Assembly (NCBI GenBank): GCA_963674945.2
Contig: CAXXWQ010000004.1
Location: 640,001-704,000, forward strand
DNA length: 64,000 nt
Origin: an uncultured Desulfosarcina sp.
GTDB lineage: Bacteria > Desulfobacterota > Desulfobacteria > Desulfobacterales > Desulfosarcinaceae
Reading direction: 5' to 3'
Positions 2,607 to 64,000 of this stretch are shown here, piece by piece. The translations under genes and the position numbers were made by a program. The number at the start of each line of letters is the position of its first letter. Positions within the stretch are counted from its first letter, which is position 1. The notes below the pieces were generated by a model that did no database searches, was not told where the DNA came from, and saw only the letters and a list, made by a program, of their open reading frames with translations.

Positions 2607-3140
2607 GTGAAAAAACAAAACAATACTGAAAAAATAGCACGGCTCACATCGGACCTACTGCTCAAATCGTGGTTGGAAATCGATGAGATGTTGCCTGAAC
2701 AGCTTCAGCCAATCAGGGATGATTTGAAACGTCGCCGAACCAGATCAGGAAAGGGAACAAGACTTTCCACTAATTTTATGATGTTTACTTGTACGGCTGG
2801 AATTCTAGAACGTGATGGCGCAATGACAATGGGGCAACTCAGCAAAGCCACCTCGATTCCCCAAAGCACCGCTACCCGGATGGTTGACTGGATGGTGGAT
2901 AATGGGTATGTGGAACGGTTTCATGATGCCGATGACAGGCGTGTCGTCCGTATACGCCTGACCGACAGCGGTCGTAAAATTCTGCTGGCTGCCAGAGAAC
3001 AGTTAAAGGAGCTTGCCGCCACCATCGTGAAGCGAGTTCCGGCAATTCAGCGGACGGCACTGTTCTTTATGCTGACAGACCTCACCAGCGCATGGACAAG
3101 TGTATACGAGGAACAAATTGCTTCCGGACAAGCCTCATAA
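2607..3140 (+). CDS. MarR family transcriptional regulator (paralog 1)
   Basis: MTMGQLSKATSIPQSTATRMVDWMVDNGYVER and DRRVVRIRLTDSG. Confidence 0.92.
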   Translation: MKKQNNTEKIARLTSDLLLKSWLEIDEMLPEQLQPIRDDLKRRRTRSGKGTRLSTNFMMFTCTAGILERDGAMTMGQLSKATSIPQSTATRMVDWMVDNGYVERFHDADDRRVVRIRLTDSGRKILLAAREQLKELAATIVKRVPAIQRTALFFMLTDLTSAWTSVYEEQIASGQAS

Positions 3141-3423
3141 CAGAGTACGTTTTCCACCATAGGGGGACAACCACCGGCATCGTGCATTATTATTACCAAT
3201 ACGAAAGCTTCAATCATTGCCCATCCGCAGTTAACCGGAAGGCCTGACGGGACCAACACAGCACAATAAAATACCAGTAATTTTGCATTATTGCCTGCTT
3301 CTCGGTGATTCGATGTATTCTTGCGGAGCGAACAAAATTGACATCCACCGTCACCTTTTCGGTGCACTGGGCCGACAAGGTCGGCCCAGTGCATATTGTT
3401 GACGGCAAGTAGTTCTTATTGAT

Positions 3424-4629
3424 CTAAGCTTTCGTTATGCCTGCTTCAATAACCAACTCAAGAATATCCAGTGTGTCCAAATCGGATCCTGCGGAGTTGA
3501 TACCATCGATAATGTTTCTTTTGCAAGAAGGGCAGGCCGACAGGACCACCTCTGCGCCCACCTCTTTTGCTTGTGACGCCTTGTCCGTGCCAATCTCTAC
3601 CGCCAAATCGAAGTTGATACCTTTGACTCCACCGCCACCCCCACAGCACCAGGTCTTCTCTTTGGTTCTTACAAATTCCACCACTTCAAGCCCGGGAATG
3701 GCCTCGAGAATTTTCCTAGGCTCATCGAAGACGCGCATATCCCGACCCAGTTCGCAAGGATCATGATAAACCACCTTCTTTTTGACCTCTTTGGTGAACT
3801 TCACCTTGCCCTGTTCAATCATCTCGGACAACACCTGCACGATATGCTTGGGTTTGATTTTATATTCGTCGCCTGAAAGCTTCAGTATCTTTGGATAATC
3901 CTGAACGAGGATACGATAGCATCCTGCACAGGAGGCGATCACCGTCTTGCCCTTCATCAGTTCATAGTTGTGACGCATCAGATCTCGGGCCAGCATTAGA
4001 TTTCCCATCATCAACATGGGATTGCCGCAGCAGTGCTCTTCCTCTCCCAGGATGTTGAAGGGGATGTCAAGAATATTCATAACCTTACCGACAGCCTGGG
4101 CGATCTCGACTTCCCTGAAGCTGGACAGACACCCCACGAAATAGATGGTATCGGCGTTGGGATCCAGCTTGATATCCTCTTCTTCCGCCCAGTCACCTCT
4201 CTCATCGTTTGGGTAGCCCATGACATTGTCGGACTTCTCAATGGCGTCGCAGAACATGTGAACTTCTGGCGGAAGTTCGACCCCGGAAGAATAAAGCTCA
4301 GCCCTCAAGGCCTTAACGAGATGCGGATGGTTAATGAGCGGCGTACCACCGGCTGCCAAATCCAATGCCCCGCATGTTTCCCGGCAGTTGCCGCAAAGGA
4401 GACACTCATATACATCTTTGACCGGAACGTCCTCGAGTTTCAGCGTGCCGTTTAAAACCTCCTTGGCCAGCGCCACTCTGCCGCTGGGAAAATTTGTCCA
4501 GAACCCTGCCGAATGTTCGCCCGAAGGGCATACTCGGTAGACCTTTTCAAAATGATCATATTTTGCACGGCAGACACCGCACCGGATACATCTGTTAGCA
4601 TCGTTTCTATACTTTTCTAACTCGCCCAT
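3424..4629 (-). CDS. GlcF/HdrD-like Fe-S oxidoreductase (two 4Fe-4S motifs, two CCG domains)
   Basis: CIRCGVC, CLLCGNCRETC, CCGNP, YHDPCELGR, CCGGGGG, ACPSC. Confidence 0.9.
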   Translation of the reverse strand: MGELEKYRNDANRCIRCGVCRAKYDHFEKVYRVCPSGEHSAGFWTNFPSGRVALAKEVLNGTLKLEDVPVKDVYECLLCGNCRETCGALDLAAGGTPLINHPHLVKALRAELYSSGVELPPEVHMFCDAIEKSDNVMGYPNDERGDWAEEEDIKLDPNADTIYFVGCLSSFREVEIAQAVGKVMNILDIPFNILGEEEHCCGNPMLMMGNLMLARDLMRHNYELMKGKTVIASCAGCYRILVQDYPKILKLSGDEYKIKPKHIVQVLSEMIEQGKVKFTKEVKKKVVYHDPCELGRDMRVFDEPRKILEAIPGLEVVEFVRTKEKTWCCGGGGGVKGINFDLAVEIGTDKASQAKEVGAEVVLSACPSCKRNIIDGINSAGSDLDTLDILELVIEAGITKA

Positions 4630-4641
4630 TTTGCCGTCTCC

Positions 4642-6102
4642 TTATGCAAAGAAAACCCCAGGATTCATGATGTTGTTGGGATCCAGATGTTGCTTCATCG
4701 TCAGACAGAAATCATAAAATTCCGGCGTCCAACCCTGTGCCTTTTTATTGGCTTCGTGTCCCTGGGTGGCCTCGAGCACATATCCTTTCCGCTGCGCCTG
4801 CTCGAGATATTCCACCATTATTTTGTATATCTTATCGCGCAGTTCCTGGTCACTTTCAGGTGTAAACGGCACGATCGTCGTCATTCCCATGCCGGTTCCC
4901 GATGACAAAAGTCCTGAAATGATAGCAAGTCTGTTTTTATCGATGCCATTCTTCTCTAGGTTCGTAAATAGAAAGTCGCGGGTCCACTTATATGATTCCA
5001 GGATTTGACTTCGAGGCAGGATGAGTTCAAACAGGGGTACGGCACCAAAAGTTGCGAAGTTGTTCATCCCATGTGTAAAATGGGTGAAATTTTGGGCGAC
5101 ACCGAGTATTGCCGGATCGGCGACTTCACCGCCATGTTTGGCACAAATTGCATCTGTGGTTTTGTGTTTAAGGTCCACCTCTTCCTGCGTATTGCCGATG
5201 GAGAGAAACATGACGACCCATTTGGGTGCACCCTGCCCTTTGGTGATAATATTGACAAACTCAGGACTGAGCAACATCCCCACAGCATAGGGCTGCATAT
5301 AAAGGTAAGGGTCAATTTCCCACAATTCGTTGTAGGCCGCAAATGCTTCGTCCAAAGTATCCCAACAACGACCTCCGCCAATTTCGAATTTCGGCAAGCG
5401 AAACATGCGATAGGTTGCCTCGGTCTTTATCCCATAGATTCCGCCATCGCCGATGAAAATACCGGCCATGTCCGGTCCATGCATTGCCCGCGTCCAGGTA
5501 TTTCCCCGATATGTGGACATCGATCCGCCACCCGTTCCGGTATCGACGACCTTTCCATTGGGAAGAACCACTTTTATCCCCAGCAGGTAATGCCAGTTCC
5601 ATCCGACACAGAAACCATAGCTTCCGAAACCGGCGCCCGGCTCCCCACTGATATGACCACCGATGGTATCGATGTAGTGTGGCGTACCGGCCGTATGCAA
5701 ATCATATCCCAGCGCATTCACCTTACCAGCCAGTTCTCCCCACGTGATCCCGGCCTGGGCGGTTACACACATGTTCGCTTCATCGATTTCGATGACCTTA
5801 TCCATCCGTTTCATGTCGACGATGATGCCTCTTCCCGGCTGCCCTTTGGGAACACCGGAAATGGATGCTTTTCCACCCATTGGAATCAGAGGGGTGCGCG
5901 TCTGATTCGCCAGCCTTACGATCTCCACAACCTCCTCCGTGGAACCTGGCCGTACGATGACACCCTGGGGCTTGGCGGGAGGAAAGAGACTAATATCCCT
6001 GGTATAGGATAATAGGGCTCCCTTGTTGTCTGTGACATATTCGGCGCCAACAATTGCCCCCAGTTCTTCGTAGAGTTCATGATGCTTTTTTGCCATAGCC
6101 AT
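4642..6102 (-). CDS. GlcD-like FAD-binding oxidoreductase (VAO/PCMH family)
   Basis: RPGSTEEV, TIGGHI, GIYGIKTEAT, C-terminal LDPNNIMNPG. Confidence 0.9.
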   Translation of the reverse strand: MAMAKKHHELYEELGAIVGAEYVTDNKGALLSYTRDISLFPPAKPQGVIVRPGSTEEVVEIVRLANQTRTPLIPMGGKASISGVPKGQPGRGIIVDMKRMDKVIEIDEANMCVTAQAGITWGELAGKVNALGYDLHTAGTPHYIDTIGGHISGEPGAGFGSYGFCVGWNWHYLLGIKVVLPNGKVVDTGTGGGSMSTYRGNTWTRAMHGPDMAGIFIGDGGIYGIKTEATYRMFRLPKFEIGGGRCWDTLDEAFAAYNELWEIDPYLYMQPYAVGMLLSPEFVNIITKGQGAPKWVVMFLSIGNTQEEVDLKHKTTDAICAKHGGEVADPAILGVAQNFTHFTHGMNNFATFGAVPLFELILPRSQILESYKWTRDFLFTNLEKNGIDKNRLAIISGLLSSGTGMGMTTIVPFTPESDQELRDKIYKIMVEYLEQAQRKGYVLEATQGHEANKKAQGWTPEFYDFCLTMKQHLDPNNIMNPGVFFA

Positions 6103-6179: not shown

Positions 6180-6226
6180 AATTCCAAAGTGTCAAGTCAA
6201 ATAAGATTTGATATGGAAATATTCCA
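6180..6226 (-). promoter_or_regulatory. Composite operator/promoter upstream of glcD-like gene
   Basis: Minus strand TGGAATATTTCCA-N17-CTTGACA-N3-TGGAATT; TTGACA-N17-TAAAAT fits sigma70. Confidence 0.75.
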
Positions 6227-6550: not shown

Positions 6551-6597
6551 TGGAATATTTCCAATTTGATAAAGTATTATCTTGACACTCTGGAATT
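6551..6597 (+). promoter_or_regulatory. Composite operator/promoter upstream of methyltransferase operon
   Basis: TGGAATATTTCCA-N17-CTTGACA-N3-TGGAATT. Confidence 0.75.
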
Positions 6598-6784: not shown

Positions 6785-8020
6785 GTGGCTACGAAAAAAA
6801 GATTGGCACAATTTGGAGAGATGCAGGGTGCGCCGGACTGGTACGGCACTCCCCTGGACGAAATTCATTTCGAATGGTCCCCCGAAGAAGAAGTAGAAAT
6901 TGAGCGCTACTGCGAAAAAATCCTAAAAAACATCGAAGAAGAAGGTGGGATGACCCCCGCCGAACGGTTTAAGGCGACATTCGAGAATAAACCGAGAGAT
7001 CGTGCGCTGGTTTACGTTTTATACGGCAACGTATTCGGATCCAAAGTTCTGGATTCCGAAGCCAATGCCATTATGCCTATCGACATTTACAAATACCCGA
7101 AACTGTGGGTCAAAGTGCACCTGGCCGCCGTCGCCCGATTTAAGTTAGACTTTGCCAATTCTTACGGGATCGCCTATGGCGAGGAATTCTATCGTGCCAA
7201 TGCCATGATGATCGAATATGGCAACCCGGTTATCGCCGAAGATCCCAAAATAAAGACAATGGAGGACCTTGAAGGTATTGTGGCGCCCGATCCCAAGCTG
7301 GATGGATTGTATCCGGGATACCTCTGGGCCAACCGCGAGCTGCGACGCATCTATGACAAATATGGTCTGACCGGCAAGATGTGTATGATGCCACGCATCT
7401 GCGGTGATCCGCATTCCATCGTCATGATGTACATGATGGGCTACGCAGGATTTGCCAAGGCTCTGCGAAAGAATAAGGAGTTGGCCATAAAATGCCTGGA
7501 AATCGCCACCGAATGGGAGATCGCCTATGGAAAGGCCGTTCAGGAAGCGGCCCAGGCCGAATCACTTTACATGTGTGCAATGACAGGCGCCCAGCCTCCG
7601 AAAGGCTACGAGTGGCTGGCAGAATACTGGGCCAAGGTCGGCCAGGCTTTGGCTCCCAAGTCCTGGAATATTTACGGTTACGGCTATGCGGGAGCACTCC
7701 AATGGCTGGACATCCTCAAGGAAAATGGTGCATTGGGTGACGGCACCTTCCGTGGCGGGCTCCACGATTACCAATGTCCCTTCAAACCGATGATCGACTG
7801 GCATCGGGATAATGAACTCACCCTCTTCAGTATGAACTCAGACAAGACACTTTTGGATGGGCCGATTTCCAAGATCGAAGAAGAGGTCAAAGAGATTGTC
7901 GAATACGGCAAATCCTATAACGGATTCGGCATCGCAATCGGCATGGTGGACTACTGGACCCCATTTGCCAACCTGGATGCTGCAGTTGCAGCCGCCAAGA
8001 AATACGGCCGAACCGAATAG
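6785..8020 (+). CDS. UROD/MtaA-CmuA fold corrinoid methyltransferase (Cys form)
   Basis: GGAGG RBS and GTG 6785; MTPAERFKA..DR motif; C-terminal TPFANLDAAVAAAKKYG; adjacent to a corrinoid protein. Confidence 0.85.
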   Translation: MATKKRLAQFGEMQGAPDWYGTPLDEIHFEWSPEEEVEIERYCEKILKNIEEEGGMTPAERFKATFENKPRDRALVYVLYGNVFGSKVLDSEANAIMPIDIYKYPKLWVKVHLAAVARFKLDFANSYGIAYGEEFYRANAMMIEYGNPVIAEDPKIKTMEDLEGIVAPDPKLDGLYPGYLWANRELRRIYDKYGLTGKMCMMPRICGDPHSIVMMYMMGYAGFAKALRKNKELAIKCLEIATEWEIAYGKAVQEAAQAESLYMCAMTGAQPPKGYEWLAEYWAKVGQALAPKSWNIYGYGYAGALQWLDILKENGALGDGTFRGGLHDYQCPFKPMIDWHRDNELTLFSMNSDKTLLDGPISKIEEEVKEIVEYGKSYNGFGIAIGMVDYWTPFANLDAAVAAAKKYGRTE

Positions 8021-8198: not shown

Positions 8199-8849
8199 AT
8201 GTCACAAGAGCTTCTGGATAAAATAAAAGAGGCCATGATTGAGCTTGAGGATGATGACATCGTGGAGCTGCTCGACCAGGGACTTGAAGCGGGTGTGCCT
8301 CCCATGGAAATGATCACACATGGACTGGCCCCCGGCCTGACCGATATCGGTGATGGATTTGAAAAGGGCGTGCGGTTCATGAATGACCTGGTGCTGGCAG
8401 GTGAGATCATGAATGATTCCATGGAGAAACTACGCCCGATTTTGGAAGGCAGCGGCGGATCCAAAGGCGAGACCATGATCATCGGAACTGTCGAAGGTGA
8501 CCAGCATAACATCGGCAAACGAATCGTTGGCGCTCTTTTCACCGGTGCAGGATATACGGTAATCGATATTGGTGAGAACCAGCCGGCCAGTGAGTTTGTG
8601 AAGGCGGCAAAAGAGCATAAGGCGAAAGTGGTGGGCGCCTCGGCTATTCTCGGTCCTCTGAAATCCTATTGTAAAGTTATCAACGATGCTCTCGTTGAAG
8701 CCGGAATAAGAGAGGATTTGGTCTACGTTATCGGCGGTTGGGGCATGACCGACGAGTGGGCCGACAAAACCGGAGCCGACTGCGTTGGTGAGAACGGTGT
8801 CGAAGCCGTCACCAAGGTTCAAGAGTTTCGGGCCCACAAAGGATTATAA
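8199..8849 (+). CDS. Methyltransferase cognate corrinoid protein (MtaC/MttC-like)
   Basis: Helical cap domain plus GTVEGDQHNIGK (DxHxxG), VGASA, IGG. Confidence 0.92.
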   Translation: MSQELLDKIKEAMIELEDDDIVELLDQGLEAGVPPMEMITHGLAPGLTDIGDGFEKGVRFMNDLVLAGEIMNDSMEKLRPILEGSGGSKGETMIIGTVEGDQHNIGKRIVGALFTGAGYTVIDIGENQPASEFVKAAKEHKAKVVGASAILGPLKSYCKVINDALVEAGIREDLVYVIGGWGMTDEWADKTGADCVGENGVEAVTKVQEFRAHKGL

Positions 8850-8975: not shown

Positions 8976-9173
8976 TCTCAACACATCGAAAATGGAGGCC
9001 AACAGACTTGAAGTTGTAAGGCCTCCATTTGTTTGTATGTTCGTGTAAACCGAATAAACCAAATGACATTTCAGTAAGACCATCAGCTGAATCGGTGAAA
9101 CAGGCCTGTCTATACATCGTCACCTAAATTTGAAATATATAGACGATTCAACGATGGCAAAGGAGAGATGAGA

Positions 9174-9527
9174 ATGGCGGAAAAAGATGCCATAAAAAAC
9201 AGACTGGATCGGATGGTGAAAAAACTGGAAGAGATCGGACCGGATGTGGCGGAAGGCTGGGGCGGTACGATACTTTTTAAGATCGTGGACCTCGATACCG
9301 GCTGGATGATGAAGTTTGCACAAGACGGAACCGTGGAGAGCCTGGAAGAAAAGGTCGATGAAGACGCCGCAACCAGTATTCTGGAGTTTAAAAGCGACGC
9401 GTTTATTGATGTTTTCAACGGGAAGGTTCCTCCTGCACAGGCCAAGGGGATAGGAGATATGCGAGTATACAAATCCATTGATGCCCTTGTCGCGATCATG
9501 CCGGAGGTCATCGAAAAGGAAAACTGA
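9174..9527 (+). CDS. SCP2 sterol/lipid-binding domain protein
   Basis: About 117 aa; pattern FIDVFNGKVPPAQAKGIGDMRV resembles the SCP2 C-terminal signature; paralog at 44632. Confidence 0.7.
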   Translation: MAEKDAIKNRLDRMVKKLEEIGPDVAEGWGGTILFKIVDLDTGWMMKFAQDGTVESLEEKVDEDAATSILEFKSDAFIDVFNGKVPPAQAKGIGDMRVYKSIDALVAIMPEVIEKEN

Positions 9528-9557: not shown

Positions 9558-10028
9558 ATGAAAAACATGTACGGCAAGGAACTCATATTTCCTGAAGATC
9601 TTTACTATACGGAAGAATTGCTCTGGGTAAAAGACTTGGGTGGAAGCAAGATCAGAATCGGGGTCTCTGACCTCGGTGTTAAATCGGTAAAACATCTCGT
9701 TCATGTTAAAATGTCGGCCAAAACCGGCGACAACGTCGCCAAGGGCGATTCTATGGGTCATATCGAAACAACAAAAGGTGTCTGGGTGATTAACGCTCCT
9801 ATCGCCGGAACCATCCTTGAGATCAATAAACCCTGTACCATGGGAAATGCCAACCCCATTGATTCGGACAATTATGGTACAGGATGGATAATGGATATGG
9901 AAATCGGAGACGCCGGCGAATTGAAGACGCTCATGAGCGGCGCGGATGAGGAAACGAAGAAATGGCTCGTGGAAAAAGCCGAAGAAATCGTTCCTCTGTG
10001 GGAAGAAGAAGACGATGAAGATGATTAG
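9558..10028 (+). CDS. gcvH: GcvH-like lipoyl-carrier protein (type A, acidic tail)
   Basis: FPEDLYY..WVK..RIGVSD; lipoyl-Lys motif IETTKG; APIAGTILEIN; DNYGTGW. Confidence 0.85.
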   Translation: MKNMYGKELIFPEDLYYTEELLWVKDLGGSKIRIGVSDLGVKSVKHLVHVKMSAKTGDNVAKGDSMGHIETTKGVWVINAPIAGTILEINKPCTMGNANPIDSDNYGTGWIMDMEIGDAGELKTLMSGADEETKKWLVEKAEEIVPLWEEEDDEDD

Positions 10029-11958: not shown

Positions 11959-12334
11959 TATCTTAACAAATGGCACATTCCGTGTCAAAAATGTACGGAT
12001 AAGGGGCAACGCCGTTAAGGGATAAGAGTTCCCGAAACGATGCAAGCCGCCTCATCCAATTTGCCCATTAATCGCCGAAAAAGAAACCGTTGTGTCGAAC
12101 GGATATTATCGCTGAAAAAAGCTTCCGTTTCCATTCGAACAGACTTCTTTGCTTCTTGTGGATCTTATTACTGCTTTGTTTTAAAAATTCAGCACCAAGT
12201 CATCTGGTTGGCTGTCTTCAAGTCGGATGTGATACACCTGTTTACAGTCACATCATTTGAAAGACCGACGTGTTTTCGTAAACGCTAACGGGATTACTCC
12301 GTGAGGAGTGTACCGAAACAAAAAGGAGATGGAA

Positions 12335-14092: not shown

Positions 14093-14167
14093 TGAGTTCG
14101 AAACGATTCTTCAAAATAGAAGCAATTGATAGTAATCGGCTTACGTCTATTTACATGAGGAAAATTT

Positions 14168-15543: not shown

Positions 15544-15563
15544 TTGGTTCACACCCTTTTATT

Positions 15564-50357: not shown

Positions 50358-50453
50358 TATGAGTTCCTCCTATTTTTAGGTGATCGTATCTCAGCCTACT
50401 TCCTATATCGTTTATGCAGTTGTATGGCATAGGGTCAATGCAGAACCCATTAC

Positions 50454-52526: not shown

Positions 52527-52568
52527 TCGCTCTTTTCTCCTTACTATTGGGTATAGACTTGAGAATGG

Positions 52569-57197: not shown

Positions 57198-57219
57198 GGG
57201 TTATCCAATAAAGCGAGAG

Positions 57220-58428
57220 GTGAAGAGAATGGAATTAGAAAAACATAAGAGAGGTATTTATAGTTGCGTCCGGTGCGGTGTGTGCGTGTTCAAGTATAAT
57301 CCCTGGGGAACAAAAAAGGTATGCCCCATCCGTGAGCACACCGAAGGCTTTGAAACCCGTGCAAACCGGGGAAGGGTCCAAGTTGCCAGGGGCGTGCTGG
57401 AAGGAACCATCGAAATCACACCCGATCTGGCGGAAGTGGCTTACTCCTGTCTGCTGTGCGGCAACTGCCGTCAGGCATGTGGTGCACTGGACCTGGAGAA
57501 CAACCTGAAACCACTGATCATTCAACCCCACATCAACAAGGCGTTGCGGGCGGATTTATATGAGTCCGGCATTGAACTTCCCGATGCGGTACACCAGTTT
57601 TGCGATACCGTTGAGAAGACCCAGAATGTCATGGGGTATGCGAATGAAGATAGGGCCGAATGGGCCGAAGAGGAAGATATAAAACTCGATCCCAATGCCG
57701 ACCTCATTTATTTTGTCGGTTGTCTGACGAGCTTTCGGGAAGTTGAAATCGCCCAGGCGGTGGGTAAGATTCTCAACATCCTGGACATCCCCTTCAACAT
57801 CCTGGGAGAGGAAGAGCACTGCTGCGGCAATCCCATGCTGATGATGGGCAACCTGTTTCTGGCCAAGGATTTGATGCGGCACAACTATGAGCTGATGAAG
57901 GGCAAGAAAGTCGTTGCCTCCTGTGCCGGCTGCTATCGCATCCTTCTTCAGGATTACCCCAAGATGCTGAAGCTGGAAGGCGATGATTATAAGATCGAAC
58001 CCATACACATCGTGCAGCTGCTGGCCGAACAGATCGAACAGGGCAAGGTGAAGTTCACCAAAGAGATCAACAAGACCGTAGTCTATCACGATCCTTGCGA
58101 ACTGGGTCGGGACACGCAGACCTACGATGCGCCGCGACAGATTCTCGAGGCCATTCCCGGGCTCAAACTCGTGGAGTTCGAGGCCAATAAGGAACAGACT
58201 TGGTGCTGCGGCGGCGGCGGCGGTGTGAAAGGCACGAACTATGACCTTGCTGTGGAGATTGGATCCGACAAAGTCAAACAGGCCAACGACGTCGGCGCTG
58301 AGATGATCGTATCCGCCTGCCCTTCCTGCAAGAGAAACATCATCGACGGCATCAATCTCGTTGGATCTGATCTGGATACGCTGGACGTTCTGGAACTGTG
58401 TATTGAAGCTGGGATCACAAAAGCATAA
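57220..58428 (+). CDS. GlcF/HdrD-like Fe-S oxidoreductase with CCG domains
   Basis: C-terminal ~300 aa identical to 20740; N-terminus diverged. Confidence 0.9.
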   Translation: MKRMELEKHKRGIYSCVRCGVCVFKYNPWGTKKVCPIREHTEGFETRANRGRVQVARGVLEGTIEITPDLAEVAYSCLLCGNCRQACGALDLENNLKPLIIQPHINKALRADLYESGIELPDAVHQFCDTVEKTQNVMGYANEDRAEWAEEEDIKLDPNADLIYFVGCLTSFREVEIAQAVGKILNILDIPFNILGEEEHCCGNPMLMMGNLFLAKDLMRHNYELMKGKKVVASCAGCYRILLQDYPKMLKLEGDDYKIEPIHIVQLLAEQIEQGKVKFTKEINKTVVYHDPCELGRDTQTYDAPRQILEAIPGLKLVEFEANKEQTWCCGGGGGVKGTNYDLAVEIGSDKVKQANDVGAEMIVSACPSCKRNIIDGINLVGSDLDTLDVLELCIEAGITKA

Positions 58429-58445
58429 TGTAAGGAGAATGAAAT

Positions 58446-58892
58446 ATGCCGAAGATTGGTAAGTATTGGGTAGACAAGGATCTTTACTACTGGCCCCATG
58501 ACACCGCGCACAGCTGGGCGAAAAATGAAGACGGTAAAATCAGAGTGGGCGTCGACGACTTTGCTCAGAAGCAGGCCGGAGAACTCAAGTTTATGAGACT
58601 TTTCCCCGCCGGTAAGAAAGTGAAGCAGGGAAAACGGTTCGGAACCCTGGAGACGGCCAAGTGGGTCGGCCCATTGTTGTCGCCTGTAAACGGAACGATC
58701 GTAGAGACCAACCAGGCGGTTCTGGACCAGCCGACGCTGGTCAACGAAGACCCTTATGGCGATGGCTGGCTGGTGATTATCGAGCCGTCCGACATAGATG
58801 ATGATATGACCCGGCTGGTGAAGGGAGACTCACCCGAAGCTGCCGAATGGATGAAGAAAGACATCACTGAGATCGCCAAGGAAAATGTGTAA
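58446..58892 (+). CDS. gcvH: GcvH/LbpA-like lipoyl-carrier protein (type B)
   Basis: Identical to 21966-22412. Confidence 0.88.
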   Translation: MPKIGKYWVDKDLYYWPHDTAHSWAKNEDGKIRVGVDDFAQKQAGELKFMRLFPAGKKVKQGKRFGTLETAKWVGPLLSPVNGTIVETNQAVLDQPTLVNEDPYGDGWLVIIEPSDIDDDMTRLVKGDSPEAAEWMKKDITEIAKENV

Positions 58893-59267
58893 TAACGTAC
58901 TTCACCTGCACCGCAGGTGGTAATAAAAAGCCCCCTCGAAAGAGGGGGCAATAAAACGGCGGCATACACAATCCCAACGATCGTGGCATAAATTTCGCCA
59001 TTTATCTATAGGTTCTTCCTCCATTTTCGTCCTTTTGGCTTTTCGGAGGGAGAGCCTATTTATGCTCATAGGATCGGCAGAACCGTATGCGTCCACGACG
59101 AAACGTGGGTGGCGAATGCCTGACGGTAAGAGCCTCGATATTATACTAACGGGAGCCCATAATAGCATCCGCACCTTACTGTTCGCAGCTCATGGGAAGT
59201 GTAAGAAGTATTACAGGCAAAGGGCTTCAGGGGCTGATGCTACTTGTTCATAATGAAGAGGGATAGA

Positions 59268-60704
59268 ATGGAGAAAAACATCAATTCGCAACTGTCCAAG
59301 ATCGTAGGAGAGGAAGATATCGCTACCGATGCTTTTGAGAGAATGCTCTACAGCCACGACATAGCGCCTCTTCCGAGCCTTCTATCATCAGTATTCAAGA
59401 CCATTCCGGATGCTATTGCCCGACCCGAAAGCAGCCAGGAGCTGGCGCAAATAATGCGCTTGGCTTCACAGCACGAGGTGCCGGTGGTCCCGAGAGCTGC
59501 CGCATCGTGGGCTTTGGGTGGCGTCATCCCTACGAAAGGCGGCATTGTTCTGGATCTGGTAAAGTTAAACAGAATTATCGCATTGTCCGTCGACGAATCA
59601 TGGGTCGAAGTCGAAGCCGGCGTCATATTCAAGAATCTGATGACCTACCTGTCGGATAAGGGGATGGCCGTATTGTCCTGTCCGACCAGCGCACCTTCTT
59701 CTACCATTGGCGGCTGGGTCAGCACCGGTGGCAACGGCCTAGGTTCATTGAAATATGGGCCGATCCGTGAACAGGTGATGGAGCTTGAGATCGTCACGCC
59801 CACAGGTGAAATCAGGAGGGTTTCCAGGGACTCCACGGGTCCGAACATCGATTGGTTTTTTGGAACGGAAGGCCAGTTTGGTGTAATTACCAAGGTGAAG
59901 CTGAAAATACGCAAAAAGCCCGAAAAACAAATTGTCCGCGGTTTGTATACGACGGGACACAAAGAGCTGGCACAGTTGGTAGCTGAATTAAAAGGGCTTC
60001 CATATGTTCTGATAGCTCTCGATTCGGATCTGATGTCCTTCAAGGATAAACTGCACGACAGAAAAACAAAAGGGAAAAATCTGTTGCTGGCTGTCTTTGA
60101 AGGGACTGAAAAGGATGTCGATTCCGCTGTGAGTGCCTTCGACGGCATTGTCCAGAAAAGAGGACTGCAAGACATCGGGGAACATCTTGCCATGGAAGAG
60201 TGGGAAGAAAGGTATCAACCGATGAGAGTCGGCAAGCTGGGCCCCACGCTCCTTTCAGGAGAGTTCAGTGTCCCGATTGATCAACTGCAGCCTGTGCTTG
60301 ACAAAATCAAAGTGCTTCAAAAGAAAAGCGGCATGAAAATCGGGGTGGAGGTACAGGTAATTTCCCAAAAATCGGCGTTGGTATTGGCGATGTACCTTAC
60401 TGACGAGAGAAAGCCGATCAGGTATTTAATCCATATGGGACTCGTTGCAGATATAAACAATATCGGATTCTCCCACGGAGGGCAACCTTACGGAATGGGC
60501 ATATGGAATTCCTTCTCCCTGAAAAAGCTTTACAGCAGGGAGCAAATAAAGAAACTGAAACGTGCAAAGAAAGAACTCGATCCGAAGGGGATAATGAATC
60601 CCGGTAAGTTTTTCAAAGCCGAAACCCAGTTCGGAATATCCATTCCCCCGATACTTTTTGACACCTCAATGAAGGCTCTGAGCGTTGCCCGACGATTCCT
60701 GTAG
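59268..60704 (+). CDS. FAD-binding oxidoreductase (second type)
   Basis: Identical to 22788-24224. Confidence 0.9.
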   Translation: MEKNINSQLSKIVGEEDIATDAFERMLYSHDIAPLPSLLSSVFKTIPDAIARPESSQELAQIMRLASQHEVPVVPRAAASWALGGVIPTKGGIVLDLVKLNRIIALSVDESWVEVEAGVIFKNLMTYLSDKGMAVLSCPTSAPSSTIGGWVSTGGNGLGSLKYGPIREQVMELEIVTPTGEIRRVSRDSTGPNIDWFFGTEGQFGVITKVKLKIRKKPEKQIVRGLYTTGHKELAQLVAELKGLPYVLIALDSDLMSFKDKLHDRKTKGKNLLLAVFEGTEKDVDSAVSAFDGIVQKRGLQDIGEHLAMEEWEERYQPMRVGKLGPTLLSGEFSVPIDQLQPVLDKIKVLQKKSGMKIGVEVQVISQKSALVLAMYLTDERKPIRYLIHMGLVADINNIGFSHGGQPYGMGIWNSFSLKKLYSREQIKKLKRAKKELDPKGIMNPGKFFKAETQFGISIPPILFDTSMKALSVARRFL

Positions 60705-60715
60705 GAGAGACAGAC

Positions 60716-61888
60716 ATGGAAATTTCAGATCTCAAGAAATATAGCATTGATATTGACCCTTTGGTTTGTGTCCAGTGTGGTTATTGCCGCACCGTTTGCC
60801 CCATATTCGAGCAAATTCCCTGGGAGTCGGCTTCACCTCGAGGAAAGCTTTTTTATTTGAAGGAGCTTGTTCGAAAAGGCGCCTCAGAGCTTGATGAAGA
60901 CTTTGCCAATCGCCTGTTCCAATGCACGCTGTGCGGTCGTTGCGAGGAGGTGTGTCAGCTTGCCATTAAAACCGAGGATATGTGGCGAAAGGTCAGAGCT
61001 GCCGTATATGAAGCCGGCAAGAGCCCCGAGCCGATCATGGCGATGGACGGGGGACTTGCGGAAAAACAGAACCCATATGGTTCGGACTCATTTTTACGTG
61101 ACATGTGGACCGACTTTATGGATGATGACGAAATTCCGGATAAGGAAACGGCACACACCATATTCTTTGTCGGCTGCACGTCGGCCCTCAAAGCGCAGAC
61201 CCAGGATATTCCCGCGGCAGCGGCGCGTATTCTTAATTGCGCCGGTGAGGATTGGACGTTTTTAGGTGAGGACGAGGTGTGCTGCGGTTCACCCAATATG
61301 ATGGTAGGCAATCTGGAAAAAGCGAAAGATCTTGCCAGACAGAATACGGAGCAATTTGAAGCAAGGGGCGCCAAGAGAATTGTAACGAATTGTCCCGGCT
61401 GTTACCGGGCCCTGGAGAAATATTCGGAGATGCTCGGGCGTAAGCTTGACTTTGAAGTACTTCACCTTACCGAGCTTGTCAGTCGATATCTGAAGGAAGG
61501 GCGTATTAAAGTAAAAGAGAAGTATAAGGAAAAAATCATCTATCATGATCCTTGCGAGCTGGGACGCCTGAGCGGCATATGCGAAGACCCCAGAGCGATT
61601 CTGAAGGCAATCACGGACCAGCCCGTTGACTTTCCGGAGAACAGGGCAGACAGCCAGTGTTGTGGTGGAGGCGGATTGCTTATGGCGGTAGACGGTGATT
61701 TGCGTCTTCGGATCGGAGAGAACAAAGCCAAAGTGGCAAAAAAGATGGGCGCCGATATCATCACATCGGCCTGTCCGTCCTGCAAAATGGTACTTGACGA
61801 TGCCGCAAAGAGCTTGAAAACCGGCGCAAAGGTGCTCGACATAATGGAGCTCTTGGCTGAAAAACTGGAAGACCCTGCTGAAGAGTAG
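60716..61888 (+). CDS. HdrD/GlcF-like Fe-S oxidoreductase
   Basis: Identical to 24236-25408. Confidence 0.9.
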   Translation: MEISDLKKYSIDIDPLVCVQCGYCRTVCPIFEQIPWESASPRGKLFYLKELVRKGASELDEDFANRLFQCTLCGRCEEVCQLAIKTEDMWRKVRAAVYEAGKSPEPIMAMDGGLAEKQNPYGSDSFLRDMWTDFMDDDEIPDKETAHTIFFVGCTSALKAQTQDIPAAAARILNCAGEDWTFLGEDEVCCGSPNMMVGNLEKAKDLARQNTEQFEARGAKRIVTNCPGCYRALEKYSEMLGRKLDFEVLHLTELVSRYLKEGRIKVKEKYKEKIIYHDPCELGRLSGICEDPRAILKAITDQPVDFPENRADSQCCGGGGLLMAVDGDLRLRIGENKAKVAKKMGADIITSACPSCKMVLDDAAKSLKTGAKVLDIMELLAEKLEDPAEE

Positions 61889-61907
61889 GTGCCACAAAGG
61901 AGATACC

Positions 61908-62405
61908 ATGGTGGATTTCTCGGATTTTGGTGAGATCGCATGCGCCATCGACAATGATGGTTCGTATAGTGTTGGTGTTGCCTGGGACAAGAAAACCGGT
62001 TGCGCGTCGTATGTTCGGGACCGGCCTGCTTTCGGCGTGGATATGCCCGTGGCCCACGGCGGGACCGGCGTCAATCCCTGTCCCGGCGAACTGCTTTCGA
62101 CCGCGGTCGGCAGTTGCTTTATCGGGACGTTTCTGGTATTTCAAAGACAGCTTCAAGTCGAGCTGCTCGATATGCGGGCCTTTGTTCGGGGTACTCTCGA
62201 ACTGGGAACCGAGGGGGATAACGAAGGCAAATACGATATCACCAAAGTCGACGTGCATGTGAAGGTGAAAGTGGAAGGCGATGATTTTGAAAAGGAAGTT
62301 GTGGAGGATTGCCTCAGAATGACCAGGATGCATTGCCCCACCACACGGCTTCTGGAAAAATCCATTCCTGTAAACGTTACCACTGAAATCGAAATGGTGG
62401 AATAA
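61908..62405 (+). CDS. OsmC/Ohr family protein (intact)
   Basis: PCPGELLSTAVGSCF and MHCPTT. Confidence 0.85.
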   Translation: MVDFSDFGEIACAIDNDGSYSVGVAWDKKTGCASYVRDRPAFGVDMPVAHGGTGVNPCPGELLSTAVGSCFIGTFLVFQRQLQVELLDMRAFVRGTLELGTEGDNEGKYDITKVDVHVKVKVEGDDFEKEVVEDCLRMTRMHCPTTRLLEKSIPVNVTTEIEMVE

Positions 62406-62450
62406 TCACCCGGGTCCATAAGGACCCGGGTTTCTAGTAAGGAATCAGAA

Positions 62451-63584
62451 ATGAGTACGAGTGTTGCCAAAACAATTGAACCGTCCGATAAGGTCGTTGA
62501 ATCGCCTGATTACGTAAGAGTCAGTTCGGCAGCCGCCATGACCCTCGGACTCATGCCGGGCAGGTTTCTTCGTGGTGCGAAACTGTATTGCATCAACCTT
62601 CTTCTCATGTACGATAGCGGCTGTGCCGGAAAGTGCGCCTATTGTGGGCTGGAGAGGGCCAGGCAGTCCGATAAGTCCTGGGAAGATCGCAGTTTCATTC
62701 GGGTACCTTGGCCGGTTGTCAGTCTGGATGAAGTCATCGAGAGAATGGGACATGACTATTGTTCCCACGTGCAGCGTGTCTGTGTCTCCATGGTGACCAA
62801 CGGCAGAGCAAAGGGAGACACCCTTGAGATCGTGAGACGACTGAGCAAAAAGACGGATTCCATATCGGGACTGATCGCTCCCACCATCATTGATAAGAAT
62901 TGGCTGATAGACTTGAAAGAAGCCGGTGCCGACTGGTTGGGAGTGGCTGTGGATGCGGCGACCCCCGAGCTGTTTGATCAACTGCGGGGCAAGGGTGTGG
63001 GCGGACCGCATCGTTGGGATCGTTACTGGAAGACAGTAGAACAAGGAGTGGAGGTATTTGGGAAATACAAGGTCGGTATTCACCTGATCGTCGGTGTGGG
63101 AGAAACCGAGCAGGAGTTTCTCAGCACAGTTCAAAAAGCCTACGATATGGGATCGTTGACCCATCTTTTCTCCTTTTTCCCCGAAGCAGGGTCCGCGATG
63201 ACGGATTGCACCCAGCCGCCTGTAGGACAATACCGGCGCTCCCAACTCGCAAGGTATCTGATCAACAAGGGGTTGGGCAGATTTGAAGATATGTCCTTCG
63301 ATGAGAATGGAAAACTGACGGACTTCGGCGTGCCGAAATCTTTACTCGATGAGACCATCGACAGCGGCGTGCCGTTCATGACCTCCGGGTGTGACGGCAA
63401 AACCAGGACAAACGTTTGCAATCGCCCGTTTTCCAATTGTACGCCGTATCAGGCATATATGGGAGAACTCAGAAACTATCCCTTTACCCCAATTGCCGAC
63501 GACATCGTGGTGATACGGAAACAACTTGAAGACTATTCCGATATTCCGACGAAAGAGTGGAAGGAAGGTCTTGGGTGTGGATGA
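62451..63584 (+). CDS. lipS2: Radical SAM protein, LipS2-type lipoyl synthase subunit
   Basis: CAGKCAYC; C-terminal TSGC..CNRP resembles the LipS2 TxGCPxC(N/D)RP motif. Confidence 0.72.
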   Translation: MSTSVAKTIEPSDKVVESPDYVRVSSAAAMTLGLMPGRFLRGAKLYCINLLLMYDSGCAGKCAYCGLERARQSDKSWEDRSFIRVPWPVVSLDEVIERMGHDYCSHVQRVCVSMVTNGRAKGDTLEIVRRLSKKTDSISGLIAPTIIDKNWLIDLKEAGADWLGVAVDAATPELFDQLRGKGVGGPHRWDRYWKTVEQGVEVFGKYKVGIHLIVGVGETEQEFLSTVQKAYDMGSLTHLFSFFPEAGSAMTDCTQPPVGQYRRSQLARYLINKGLGRFEDMSFDENGKLTDFGVPKSLLDETIDSGVPFMTSGCDGKTRTNVCNRPFSNCTPYQAYMGELRNYPFTPIADDIVVIRKQLEDYSDIPTKEWKEGLGCG

Positions 63585-63596
63585 TAGGTATAACCG

Positions 63597-64000
63597 ATGG
63601 TAAAAAGTAGAGCAGGCACAAGCTCCGGAAGCCTGTCTGTTGACGAGTTACTGAAAAAGTGTTTCGAAGAACCGCTTGACAGTCTGGAATCGTTGTTCGA
63701 TCAAGGGCGCAAAATCGCCGACGATCGTTTCGAAAAAGCACTACACTGTTATGTGCCGGGCATGGTGCATTACAATACGCCGTACTTTAGATCGACCCCC
63801 CAATGCTTTCCCAGTATCTCCGTGACCGGAACCGAATGCCGCCTCAATTGCAAACATTGTCGCGGCAAACTGCTCGAACGGATGACCGCGGCGACAACCC
63901 CCCAGGCGTTATACGAAGCATGCATTGAAATAAAACAATCGGGCGCAACGGGATGTCTGATCAGCGGCGGGAGCCTTACGGACGGCAGCGTTCCACTGAT
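63597..64000 (+). CDS. lipS1: Radical SAM protein, probable LipS1-type subunit (3' partial)
   Basis: Translated by hand: FPSISVTGTECRLNCKHC..GCLISGGS..GSVPL; adjacent to the LipS2-like gene. Confidence 0.65.
   Translation, partial: MVKSRAGTSSGSLSVDELLKKCFEEPLDSLESLFDQGRKIADDRFEKALHCYVPGMVHYNTPYFRSTPQCFPSISVTGTECRLNCKHCRGKLLERMTAATTPQALYEACIEIKQSGATGCLISGGSLTDGSVPL

Follow-up and report, generated by a model that had tools for sequence, protein, structure and literature searches.

The window (the whole 64,000-nucleotide stretch analysed) carries a rare, horizontally acquired gene set for B12-dependent methyl transfer that comes with its own lipoyl carriers and Hdr-like flavin/Fe–S enzymes. 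The evidence below supports the coupling as real: corrinoid methyl-transfer genes, lipoyl carriers and FAD/CCG enzymes stay together across phyla, are co-acquired and are probably co-regulated. As originally predicted, the pathway is apparently undescribed: we found no description of this coupling in the literature searched, in which the available text of a study of Asgard archaea lists gcvH near MtrH/MttB/MtbC genes and nothing further (PMC11291895). Judged by homology and layout, the core is a predicted Mto/Mtv-type corrinoid demethylase, for which tetrahydrofolate (THF) is the likely acceptor of the substrate's methyl group. We hypothesize, with a probability of roughly 0.4, that its lipoyl H-proteins, rather than accepting the methyl group, shuttle electrons between NADH (via LpdA) and the FAD/CCG enzymes by switching between dithiol and disulfide, much as CoM/CoB do.

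The genes named in the original prediction are where it had placed them, and each was confirmed with Pfam/NCBIfam (Table 1). Its three MarR-linked modules hold as gene sets, but their independence was overstated, module 2 being a recent and partial copy of module 3, mosaic in structure. In a self-BLAST of the window, 20583–25655 matches 57047–62135 at 97.9% identity, the RACo block 25726–27650 is an inverted 99.9% copy of 43035–41111, and 27635–28108 consists of mere pieces of the LpdA-end/ligase/LipA region. Of OsmC, module 2 retains a fragment of 76 aa, and its LipA is broken. Module 3 itself contains a tandem duplication (46984–50374 equals 50443–53833; 3391 bp, 100% identity), and its minus strand reads, from 53816 down to 38027, MT, CP, MT, [duplicate MT, CP, MT], CP, MT, SCP2-like, GcvH-like, MtrH-like, RACo, LpdA, LplA/B-type ligase and LipA (MT, methyltransferase; CP, corrinoid protein). 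All matches to GcvP, GcvT and E2 in genome-wide Pfam searches fall outside the window, and no E1 or sHdr gene occurs among the 60 window ORFs scanned with Pfam, as had been claimed.

Table 1. Genes of the three modules and their surroundings (window positions).
Feature	Position	Strand	Evidence
Module 1
MarR-family regulator 1	2607–3140	+	PF01047
GlcF/HdrD-like Fe–S protein, two complete CCG motifs (Cx..CCG..CxxC, twice)	3424–4629	-	PF02754 x2, Fer4_8; best NCBIfam match TfrB
GlcD-like FAD_binding_4 flavoprotein	4642–6102	-	PF01565, weak PF02913; 38–39% identity to GlcDa type
URO-D-fold methyltransferase MT484	6785–8020	+	PF01208, paralogue alignment; ORF open from 6566
Corrinoid protein, B12-binding_2 + B12-binding, DxHxxG	8199–8849	+	Pfam/NCBIfam
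Stand-alone SCP2-like protein	9168–9527	+	PF02036, 21.6 bits (borderline); database clusters n=5 only
GcvH-like lipoyl carrier, 156-aa clade, acidic C-tail	9558–10028	+	PF01597, alignments; lipoyl Lys kept (IETTK)
MtrH/MtgA-like methylcorrinoid:THF methyltransferase (MT2)	10066–10965	+	PF02007, 239 bits; MtgA HMM, 387 bits (under NCBIfam equivalog cut-off); PDB 6sj8, 348 bits
Between the MT2 gene of module 1 and MarR 2
FAD (FixC/geranylgeranyl-reductase-like) + 2x[4Fe-4S] oxidoreductase	12308–14092	+	Pfam/NCBIfam
Corrinoid protein CP232	14854–15552	-	Pfam
URO-D-fold methyltransferase, in-frame TGA at 16223–16225 (predicted selenocysteine)	15746–16993	-	
Module 2
MarR-family regulator 2	17357–17926	+	Pfam; 84% nucleotide identity to MarR 1
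GlcDa	19234–20733	+	Pfam
GlcF	20740–21948	+	Pfam
GcvH148	21966–22412	+	Pfam
GlcDb	22764–24224	+	Pfam
HdrD-like	24236–25408	+	Pfam
OsmC fragment	25428–25655	+	
RACo copy	25738–27573	+	
LipA fragments	27775–28170	+	
Module 3
LipA lipoyl synthase	38027–38911	-	NF004019, 408 bits, exceeds cut-off
LplA/LipB-type lipoate/octanoyl ligase, catalytic domain	38914–39735	-	PF21948, 139.7 bits; under NCBIfam equivalog cut-off
Dihydrolipoyl dehydrogenase LpdA	39797–41182	-	TIGR01350, 575 bits, exceeds cut-off
RACo corrinoid reductive activase	41188–43023	-	Fer2 + RACo linker, middle and C-terminal domains (Pfam)
MtrH/MtgA-like MT2	43163–44062	-	Pfam; 98.7% identity to module 1 copy
GcvH-like lipoyl carrier, 156-aa clade (VETSK)	44113–44583	-	Pfam, alignments
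SCP2-like protein	44632–44985	-	Protein-atlas search, 0.93 (Pfam silent); 52% identity to 9168–9527
MT450	45005–46243	-	
CP229	46248–46937	-	
Sec-MT	46995–48248	-	
CP216	48417–49067	-	
MT415	49110–50357	-	
Sec-MT	50454–51707	-	
CP216	51876–52526	-	
MT415	52569–53816	-	
MarR-family regulator 3	54538–55119	+	Pfam
GlcDa	55761–57197	+	
GlcF	57220–58428	+	
GcvH148	58446–58892	+	
GlcDb	59244–60704	+	
HdrD-like	60716–61888	+	
OsmC-like	61908–62405	+	
LipS2-like radical SAM	62451–63584	+	NCBIfam, 208 bits (under equivalog cut-off)
LipS1-like, start only in window	63597–64000 (runs past window end)	+	

Three pairs of ORFs (256 aa + 153 aa) each represent one MT gene interrupted by a single in-frame TGA (47478–48248 with 46995–47456, 50937–51707 with 50454–50915, and 16223–16993 with 15746–16201), a feature that the original prediction had overlooked; we read the TGA as selenocysteine, at a position where Cys is conserved throughout the family. 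This active-site Cys/Sec is kept in 77 of the 78 MT family rows aligned. A predicted MT structure (pLDDT 95.8) matches URO-D and MtaA, with TM values up to 0.82. The alignments hold no invariant His, and the H-x-C zinc motif of MtaA is thus missing. The family has no NCBIfam match at E<=1e-5, and no name in the protein collection goes past ‘hypothetical’ or ‘uroporphyrinogen decarboxylase family’. The window CPs bear DxHxxG. Over its full length, the MtrH-like protein matches a solved methylcorrinoid:THF methyltransferase (PDB 6sj8; 348 bits, E 2.8e-103), and the methyl group is therefore likely to go to folate rather than to lipoate. Together with a layout equal to that of Mto, in which MtoA hands the methyl to a pterin according to the available part of PMC8630106, this likeness suggests that a folate route is present and sufficient.

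The lipoyl carriers keep the modified lysine by homology. LpdA, a ligase and LipA sit inside the MT operon of module 3, and beyond the window end the LipS2/LipS1-like run continues with a ligase (LplA-B_cat+DUF116) and a FAD protein resembling LipT. Homology points to two lipoylation routes, LplA/LipA and sLpl(AB)/LipS1/LipS2/LipT-like, alongside six GlcD/GlcF pairs and seven carrier genes. Both CCG cluster motifs are complete in the GlcF and HdrD-like proteins. The GlcF subunits are 70% identical and the corresponding GlcD partners 38%, a pattern expected if the lipoyl partner is shared and the organic substrates vary. The GlcD types lack the GEHGIG motif of LDHD/GlcD; the predicted GlcDa structure (pLDDT 59.5) is too poor for fold comparison.

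Linkage of gcvH, SCP2 and glcDF recurs in two Chloroflexota MAGs and in metagenome contigs, which repeat the orders MT–CP–MtrH–GcvH–RACo–LipA–GlcD–HdrD, SCP2–GcvH–MtrH and GlcF–GlcD<>MarR–MT–CP. Chloroflexota G440 has, on a single strand, MT–CP–MT–MtrH–GcvH–RACo–LipA–GlcDb–HdrD; Chloroflexota G441 has GlcF–GlcDa<>MarR–MT–CP, SCP2–GcvH–MtrH–MT and CP–MT–GcvH–MtrH. One metagenome contig reads GcvH–MtrH–MT, and genome G000 carries GlcD–GlcF–GcvH–MT–CP–GlcD–GlcF–SCP2–SecMT–CP on one strand (C3:262196–272579). Every MtrH-like gene of the clade (7/7) adjoins a GcvH156-type gene. None of 24 congeneric genomes holds the MT, GlcD or GcvH clades (GlcDa, 0/24); the MT clade is likewise missing from 16 same-order and 400 phylum genomes, and no GcvH156-type protein exceeds 36% identity among 40 relatives. 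The joint absence of the MT, GlcDa and GcvH156 clades from relatives points to co-acquisition.

A palindrome, TGGAAATATTCCA (<=1 mismatch), lies upstream of MarR 1 at 2392 and 2473, an operator-like palindrome surrounds MarR 2 (17187 and 18409), and the motif TGAAAATAATATTGA is repeated around MarR 3 (54128, 54293, 54314 and 55633). Such operator-like motifs are shared by both divergent arms (6 hits against 0.22 expected; 4 against 0.23), from which we infer co-regulation.

We hypothesize that the URO-D-fold MT–CP pairs, MtgA-like methyltransferase and RACo activase form a demethylase that would deliver methyl groups to THF. Each MT–CP pair would serve as an MT1 module with a substrate of its own, a hydrophobic or aromatic methyl donor, as the MarR regulators and the FadL/RND/MMPL transport genes suggest; the MtrH-like protein and RACo would be common to all pairs. 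LpdA would equilibrate the lipoyl proteins with NAD(H), and the CCG subunits would act on the lipoyl disulfide in the way that HdrD/TfrB act on CoM-S-S-CoB, oxidising or reducing it and exchanging electrons in either direction with divergent GlcD-fold flavoproteins that may act on organic substrates other than 2-hydroxyacids. The circuit would handle the electrons of methyl use, either as a sink or through redox chemistry on the methoxylated substrate or its product, and may also keep both the corrinoid and the active-site Cys/Sec reduced. Lipoate, at about -290 mV, is an unfavourable acceptor for most flavoprotein dehydrogenations, which makes the direction of electron flow a guess, and the well-studied O-demethylases, to our knowledge, function without any lipoyl protein. 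The strict GcvH156–MtrH adjacency and the gcvH–MtrH–MttB–CP proximity listed for Asgard archaea in the available text of PMC11291895 would link the carrier directly to methyl transfer, which an electron shuttle does not demand; thiol chemistry on the lipoyl arm would also fit the MtaA (thiol methylase) fold and near-invariant Cys/Sec of the MTs.

That the neighbourhood is due to chance, with the H-proteins and lipoylation genes serving glycine cleavage or 2-oxoacid dehydrogenases elsewhere, is almost certainly wrong. The genome does encode a glycine cleavage system as well as two E2/LpdA sets, but these have their own GcvH, LipA and LpdA, and the canonical LipA–GcvP–GcvH–GcvT operon lies on another contig (C2). 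The window carriers form separate clades, with <=36–38% identity to canonical GcvH, and stay beside MT genes in another phylum; these data support the conclusion that they do not serve glycine cleavage. A lipoate-linked methyl-THF dehydrogenase, in which GlcD-fold/CCG pairs, GcvH and LpdA would yield methylene-THF and NADH by analogy with berberine-bridge-type N-methyl oxidation (same flavoprotein superfamily), is highly unlikely. GlcDb–HdrD are the only redox enzymes in the G440 MT–MtrH–GcvH–RACo–LipA operon, the flavoproteins have lost the hydroxyacid motif, and reticuline oxidase and cytokinin dehydrogenases are among the remote PDB matches of GlcDb. However, MTHFR homologues occur in all three genomes (seven in G000, one in G440, three in G441), the reaction would face the same uphill energetics as NAD-linked MTHFR, the existence of several divergent GlcD types would go unexplained, and we know of no precedent.

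The original prediction made protein-bound dihydrolipoate the thiol acceptor of the corrinoid methyl, like CoM for MtaA, or a C1/sulfur carrier, oxidised by FAD/CCG enzymes and recycled by LpdA. We retain its redox half as a reading; a CoM-like methyl acceptor is not supported, given the folate-type MT2 and the Mto-like layout, and the proposal as a whole is distinctly improbable. The MtaA-like fold and Cys/Sec of the MTs, MT–CP–MT triads (in the window and at L011) resembling MT1–CP–MT2, the consistent position of GcvH beside methyl-transfer genes and HdrD-like proteins reminiscent of the CoM/CoB cycle speak for it. Yet every module has a close homologue of the solved THF methyltransferase, and the MTs, besides lacking the zinc motif, all belong as paralogues to a single family and have CPs of their own, as is usual for MT1s. 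A methyl thioether is, moreover, a thermodynamic sink, and Pfam scans of the window found no thioether-releasing enzyme (MCR or Mtr membrane subunits). A maintenance role is rather unlikely. In this reading electrons from NADH would reach the [2Fe-2S] domain of RACo through LpdA and the lipoyl H-protein, with CCG proteins turning the dithiol's electron pair into single-electron steps, and would serve the ATP-driven return of Co(II) to Co(I); the same chain may keep the MT Cys/Sec reduced. CCG clusters do perform disulfide chemistry by one-electron steps, as work on HdrB indicates; GcvH156 adjoins MtrH and RACo, LpdA directly follows RACo, LipA does so in G440, and the Cys/Sec is conserved. Reactivation is, however, rarely needed, and so many redox pairs, carriers and lipoylation routes seem excessive; the GlcD partners diverge in the manner of substrate-binding subunits; and characterised RACo systems have no need of a lipoyl protein, with Ti(III) citrate serving as in vitro donor, in the available part of PMC8630106.

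That part describes Mto/Mtv-type O-demethylases of Methermicoccus shengliensis, Moorella and Acetobacterium, with MtoA (MtrH-like MT2), MtoB (MT1), MtoC (corrinoid protein) and MtoD (activase). The window shares these four parts and their sizes (MT ~47 kDa, CP ~23 kDa, MtrH-family MT2, RACo ~68 kDa), several MT1 paralogues per cluster, and a nearby regulator and aromatic-compound transporters; its MTs are likened to MtoB/MtvB by size and layout. To the Mto set as described there, it adds SCP2-like and GcvH-like genes, operonic LpdA, ligase and LipA, divergent FAD/CCG operons and the Cys/Sec residue. MtgA of Desulfitobacterium hafniense, the 6sj8 protein, pairs with an MttB-family glycine betaine MT1, whereas the MT1s in the window have the URO-D fold, and there is always an adjacent gcvH. 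The mec (dichloromethane) and cmu (chloromethane) systems likewise combine URO-D-superfamily MTs, a corrinoid protein and MTII, but the available text of PMC9768040 names no lipoyl carrier, LpdA or CCG enzyme for them, and gives two-component regulators rather than MarR and MTs of 288–343 aa against 415–450 aa in the window.

For the redox arm, the sHdr–LbpA system, as far as the available text goes, similarly dedicates a GcvH-like lipoate-binding protein to CCG-type (Hdr-like) proteins (PMC6067878; PMC10332631), and its lipS1–slpl(AB)–lipT–lipS2 set corresponds to the special lipoylation genes beside the window carriers (PMC10332631). In contrast to that system as described, the scanned window ORFs include no sHdrA/B/C, DsrE or TusA sulfur transferases, the flavoproteins are GlcD-fold, and the genes sit in a methyl-transfer context of anaerobe type. 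TfrAB and methanogen HdrD resemble the window enzymes in joining a flavoprotein to an Fe–S subunit with two CCG domains and coupling thiol/disulfide to organic redox chemistry. TfrB is the best named match (NCBIfam) of both GlcF and HdrD-like proteins, and in G441 a TfrAB-like pair (a fumarate-reductase flavoprotein and a 2Fe-2S/CCG protein) replaces GlcDb–HdrD after GcvH148, followed by OsmC–LipS2. In the window, protein-bound lipoate would take the place of CoM/CoB as thiol partner, and the flavoprotein is of the FAD_binding_4 rather than the fumarate-reductase type.

We class the system encoded in the window as a corrinoid demethylase that incorporates a lipoyl redox module. Pfam searches of 60 window ORFs, 26 of which were also compared with NCBIfam, recovered every gene named in the original prediction where it had been placed. 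These genes form three MarR-linked modules of URO-D-fold methyltransferases (MTs), corrinoid proteins (CPs), GcvH-like lipoyl carriers, GlcD-like flavoproteins and GlcF/HdrD-like Fe–S (CCG) proteins. Past the window, the redox operon of module 3 goes on to encode a ligase (LplA-B_cat+DUF116) and then a LipT-like FAD protein, beyond which lie DUF1302, DUF1329, BNR and MMPL genes and then an RND efflux set. Rfam gave zero matches in the window.

Genes of modules 1 and 3, porin genes and candidate operators in the window
Feature	Position	Strand	Context	Match
MarR	2607-3140		Module 1	Pfam
CCG/GlcF-like	3424-4629		Module 1, divergent from MT arm	Pfam
GlcD-like	4642-6102		Module 1, divergent from MT arm	Pfam
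URO-D-family MT	6785-8020		Module 1; then CP, SCP2-like, GcvH-like, MtrH-like (end 10965)	
FadL-type porin genes	11329-11958, 36258-37508			
MT arm	53816 down to 38027	minus	Module 3; MT-CP-MT-MT-CP-MT-CP-MT, SCP2-like, GcvH-like, MtrH-like, RACo, LpdA, ligase, LipA	
LpdA			Module 3 MT arm	TIGR01350, 575 bits
LplA/B-type ligase, then LipA			Module 3 MT arm	LipA 408 bits
MarR	54538-55119		Module 3, between MT arm and redox arm	
Redox arm			Module 3, across MarR; GlcD, GlcF, GcvH, GlcD, HdrD-like, OsmC-like, LipS2-like, LipS1-like (start only)	
TGGAAATATTCCA	2392, 2473		Both upstream of MarR1	
TGGAAATATTCCA	6214-6226, 6551-6563		Between divergent GlcD and MT genes	
TGGAAATATTCCA	17187-17199		Beside MarR2	
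TGGAAATATTCCA	18409-18421		Between MarR2 and ORF 18558-19010; upstream of module 2 GlcD arm	
TGAAAATAATATTGA	54128, 54293, 54314		Between MT415 and MarR3	
TGAAAATAATATTGA	55633		114 bp upstream of GlcDa	

The demethylase core is recognizable from its families. The MtrH-like protein matches 6sj8, a solved methylcorrinoid:tetrahydrofolate methyltransferase (348 bits, E 2.8e-103), and PF02007 (239 bits), and has the sequence hallmarks of an MT2 of the MtrH/MtgA family that would methylate a pterin. The CPs have B12-binding domains and the DxHxxG motif, and all four RACo Pfam domains were found in the corrinoid activase. The MarR regulators, the FadL-type porins and the uptake and efflux sets further downstream suggest that the methyl donors are hydrophobic or aromatic, and the system is a likely route by which such methylated compounds are turned over anaerobically in sediments.

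Several further genes surround the modules. The FadL-like ORF at 11329-11958 is a C-terminal fragment only. Directly 3' of module 1, the stretch 12308-14743 encodes a fusion of a FAD protein, FixC/geranylgeranyl-reductase-like, with a 2x[4Fe-4S] ferredoxin domain, as well as a Cys-rich DUF3795 protein; at the window start (460-1671) lies a pyridine nucleotide-disulfide oxidoreductase (Pyr_redox_2 plus dimerisation domain) whose own start is uncertain. Between modules 2 and 3 (28711-36115) we found DUF6951, a QueG-like Fe–S protein, a 253-amino-acid ORF of no assigned family, a MoxR/ChlI-type AAA protein, a VWA protein, DUF2284, DUF5131, a second OsmC-like protein (61% to the first), a B12-binding-domain-only protein and RNase H, possibly a corrinoid-handling accessory set.

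The MTs belong to a small, unnamed group of URO-D-fold methyltransferases. In a collection of 5.8 billion proteins the family comprises 83 clusters at E<=1e-10, named only 'hypothetical' or 'uroporphyrinogen decarboxylase family', with Chloroflexota/Anaerolineales, one Actinobacteria MAG and one Desulfobacterium MAG as the named sources; when a family profile was run against 1.84 billion representatives, 41 matched at E<=1e-30, rising to 102 at E<=1e-10 and 309 at E<=1e-3. In sequence the MTs resemble solved structures faintly (URO-D, 1.7e-5; MtaA, 0.017), and the structural model (pLDDT 95.8; Foldseek 2e-13 to 5e-13, TM <=0.82, 12–17% identity to URO-D/MtaA) predicts the URO-D/MtaA fold. Across 76–78 family rows no His is invariant or nearly so, the H-x-C...C zinc site of the thiol methyltransferases MtaA, MtbA and MtsA is absent, and two Cys positions are near-invariant, C42 and the Cys/Sec position C261. 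The conserved Cys aligns before MtaA residue 211, away from what we take to be the positions of the zinc motif.

Pairs of URO-D ORFs of 256 and 153 amino acids each proved to be one gene with a single in-frame TGA, a feature that the original prediction had missed. Such codons lie at 16223-16225, 47478-47480 and 50937-50939 in the window and in two further MT genes of the source genome (C4:2158796-2160040 and C3:263005-264246), giving 5 of its 15 full-length MT-family genes; sister copies of the same clade have Cys instead. The five distinct MTs of the window are paralogs (36–51% identity against the top alignment row) and share an invariant Cys in the column where the TGA falls. The family alignment of 78 full-length rows has Cys there in 77 (two of them Sec rows entered as C) and Ser in one. 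Four database clusters of 256–257 amino acids stop exactly before the TGA codon, which recurs at the same place in four foreign loci, two in a Chloroflexota MAG and two on metagenome contigs. Sixteen nucleotides 3' of the TGA a 7-bp hairpin begins, with 92.9% of cells paired over eight sequences and compensatory changes in four of the seven pairs; its score was matched by none of 500 shuffles, nor by any slid register. The source genome also encodes two tRNA-Sec genes and SelA. With a TGA at a Cys column, a SECIS-like hairpin and Sec machinery, these MTs have what is expected of bacterial selenoproteins, and the window adds a predicted new one; judged by title and abstract start, none of the papers listed by a literature search is about this family.

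As predicted, the linkage of these genes is conserved in other genomes, being kept in Chloroflexota MAGs and metagenome contigs. Pattern scans found six loci in genome contigs (two MAGs) and five short loci in metagenome contigs, with protein identities to the window of about 50–76%. One MAG (G440) has, on one strand, MT-CP-MT-MtrH-GcvH-RACo-LipA-GlcDb-HdrD. The other (G441) has GlcF-GlcDa divergent from MarR-MT-CP, together with SCP2-GcvH-MtrH-MT, CP-MT-GcvH-MtrH and GlcF-GcvH148-...-OsmC-LipS2-...-ligase; the short contigs carry GcvH-MtrH-MT, MT-CP-SecMT and SecMT-MT. The source genome itself (G000) has a second one-strand operon, GlcD-GlcF-GcvH-MT-CP-GlcD-GlcF-SCP2-SecMT-CP-DUF5131 (C3:261296-272579), and further MT-CP-GcvH-MtrH and SCP2-GcvH sets; the DUF5131 that closes the operon is a 72% paralog of the one at 28711-36115. 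All seven MtrH-like genes of the clade found here adjoin GcvH156, the 156-amino-acid one of the two carrier types (three in G000, one in G440, two in G441 and one metagenomic). Among 400 other Chloroflexota genomes there is one remote MtrH (30% identity), which lies beside RACo and has no GcvH in the 3.9 kb around it. The database holds 55 clusters of the GcvH156 clade and five of the SCP2-like clade. Co-variation of GcvH156 with MT type found no support: a Chloroflexota GcvH beside an MT484-type gene is 59% identical to the module 1 carrier and 62% to that of module 3.

We found no description in the literature of a lipoyl carrier within a corrinoid methyltransferase system. For Asgard archaea, an excerpt of one paper lists gcvH near genes of the MtrH, MttB-like and MtbC-like kinds, there without interpretation (PMC11291895). 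The system recurs in Chloroflexota and, by that one gene list, in archaea; new in the window is a version that is bacterial, near-complete and recently mobile, in which the methyl-transfer and GcvH-GlcD-CCG themes are directly fused in operons, and in which LpdA, two lipoylation routes and selenocysteine are present.

Both H-protein types keep the lipoyl Lys (VETSK/IETTK and LETAK), and throughout the GcvH156 clade (9558-10028 and 44113-44583 in the window) an acidic tail such as EDEDDDD follows a conserved V-P-L. Service only in glycine cleavage encoded elsewhere, a finding that would have refuted the original prediction, is very unlikely: the canonical LipA-GcvP-GcvH-GcvT set of the source genome, on contig C2, has its own GcvH with GcvP and GcvT encoded beside it, the window carriers are 32–38% identical to that GcvH, and a genome-wide search placed no GcvP or GcvT match inside the window. 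The genome has two E2 genes, each with its own LpdA. The LipS2-like (208 bits) and LipS1-like (70 bits) proteins score below the equivalog cut-offs, the latter cut by the window end. Elsewhere in the genome (C4:2116551-2116907) is a GcvH relative of 327 amino acids that is extended at its N terminus by a Cys-rich stretch and has FGRNGN, without the Lys, at the lipoyl site.

The GlcF and HdrD-like proteins each have two CCG domains with both motifs complete (Cx(n)CCGx(n)CxxC), and among named NCBIfam families they come closest to TfrB (thiol:fumarate reductase, CCG subunit). In GlcD/LDHD 2-hydroxyacid dehydrogenases the C-terminal GEHGIG-type catalytic/metal motif carries catalytic residues; here it is replaced by GQPYGMG in GlcDb and CHQGWGT in GlcDa (the GlcDa model is poor, with pLDDT 59.5 and an alignment of six rows only). 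Divergence is much faster among the GlcD partners (38% identity) than among the CCG partners (70%). In G441, the slot equivalent to GlcDb-HdrD (L019, contig C101, 1807-5090), between GcvH148 and OsmC-LipS2, holds a fumarate-reductase-type flavoprotein and a 2Fe-2S/4Fe-4S/two-CCG-domain protein; this TfrAB-like pair is a candidate lipoyl-protein:fumarate reductase. A role for the FAD/CCG set in place of MTHFR was discarded, as MTHFR homologs were found in all three genomes. The source genome has seven MTHFR paralogs, several near other, unrelated Hdr-like CCG genes (C3:1541130-1546203 and other MetF loci), where a 962-amino-acid ORF matches GlcDb and, partly, GlcF; we read it as a probable GlcD-CCG fusion.

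For the lipoyl part, a dithiol/disulfide shuttle fits best, in which the lipoyl protein would take the role of CoM/CoB toward Hdr/Tfr-like CCG enzymes. This reading draws on the lipoyl Lys, the CCG motifs, the likeness to TfrB, the divergence of GlcD, the TfrAB-like pair of G441 and the LpdA gene in the MT operon, and an excerpt of PMC9723716 floats GcvH as a possible disulfide partner of HdrB-type proteins in Culexarchaeia. A shuttle does not explain the constant adjacency of GcvH156 to the MtrH-like gene, the proximity of gcvH to methyltransferase genes in the Asgard list, or the roles of the SCP2-like protein and the Cys/Sec residue. Because of these gaps two other readings keep a place. 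A maintenance role, in which the lipoyl part would feed electrons to RACo, is a serious rival. The original prediction that the lipoyl protein may carry the methyl group retains a modest probability. In an extended form, which we consider improbable, protein-bound lipoate would stand in for CoM, one of the Cys/Sec MTs would methylate dihydrolipoyl-GcvH from the CP, and GlcD-fold/CCG enzymes would oxidize the S-methyl group (to methylene dithioacetal and beyond), regenerating lipoate. If true, methyl groups would be oxidized in a lipoate-dependent way alongside the folate route, and lipoate would be a bacterial and archaeal counterpart of CoM in C1 metabolism.

All three modules predicted are present, and by self-BLAST they are not independent of one another: 20583-25655 copies 57047-62135 at 97.9% identity, and the module 2 RACo (25738-27573; copied block 25726-27650) is an inverted 99.9% copy of the module 3 block 43035-41111. 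It is followed by pieces only of the LpdA-end/ligase/LipA region (27635-28108), and the module 2 OsmC is a fragment of 76 residues. Within module 3, the stretches 46984-50374 and 50443-53833 form a tandem duplication of 3391 bp with 100% identity, which may be an assembly artefact; the assembly consists of four contigs. An MT fragment also lies at C3:547357-547701. The perfect repeat, the inverted RACo copy, the broken LipA/ligase pieces and this MT fragment seem to indicate ongoing recombination among modules.

The MT family was found in none of 24 same-genus and 16 same-order genomes (E<=1e-20), nor in 400 phylum-sampled genomes (E<=1e-40, with at most four candidates scored per genome). GlcDa is likewise missing from the 24 congeners and has one match (28% identity) among the 16 same-order genomes, and the 40 relatives have canonical GcvH only, at most 36% identical to GcvH156. 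The package was apparently acquired together. A quick maximum-likelihood tree (leaving out ten database rows shorter than 380 amino acids, four that are the source genome's own proteins and three near-identical copies) spreads its 12 distinct MTs over six or more positions among environmental sequences; the genome thus gained several subfamilies that already existed, rather than expanding one gene in place. Two repeats are operator-like and confined to module intergenic regions, making them candidate MarR binding sites: the palindrome TGGAAATATTCCA, in modules 1 and 2, occurs six times with at most one mismatch (0.22 expected), and TGAAAATAATATTGA occurs four times (0.23 expected). We infer that the divergent arms are co-regulated.

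Lipoate is, to our knowledge, used by few enzyme systems (2-oxoacid dehydrogenases, glycine cleavage, acetoin dehydrogenase and sHdr sulfur oxidation), and, as far as we know, what the many Hdr-like CCG proteins of organisms other than methanogens act on has long been a puzzle. In the window, one mobile methyl-transfer system contains a lipoyl carrier along with a reductase for it, CCG flavoenzymes and two routes of lipoylation. Its MTs have a predicted URO-D/MtaA fold and may belong to the MtoB/MtvB clade of MT1 proteins, which act on aryl methyl ethers. The sHdrC1B1AHC2B2 and sulfur transferase genes of the sHdr-LbpA system are missing among the 60 window ORFs scanned; its lipS1-slpl(AB)-lipT-lipS2 set, which lipoylates LbpA proteins according to an excerpt of PMC10332631, is matched by the LipS2-like and LipS1-like genes at the window end together with the ligase and FAD genes just beyond it. 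In the Mto system, as outlined in an excerpt of PMC8630106, MtoB methylates MtoC, the MtrH-like MtoA hands the methyl group on to a pterin, and corrinoid reactivation falls to MtoD; this four-part layout and the component sizes equal those in the window.
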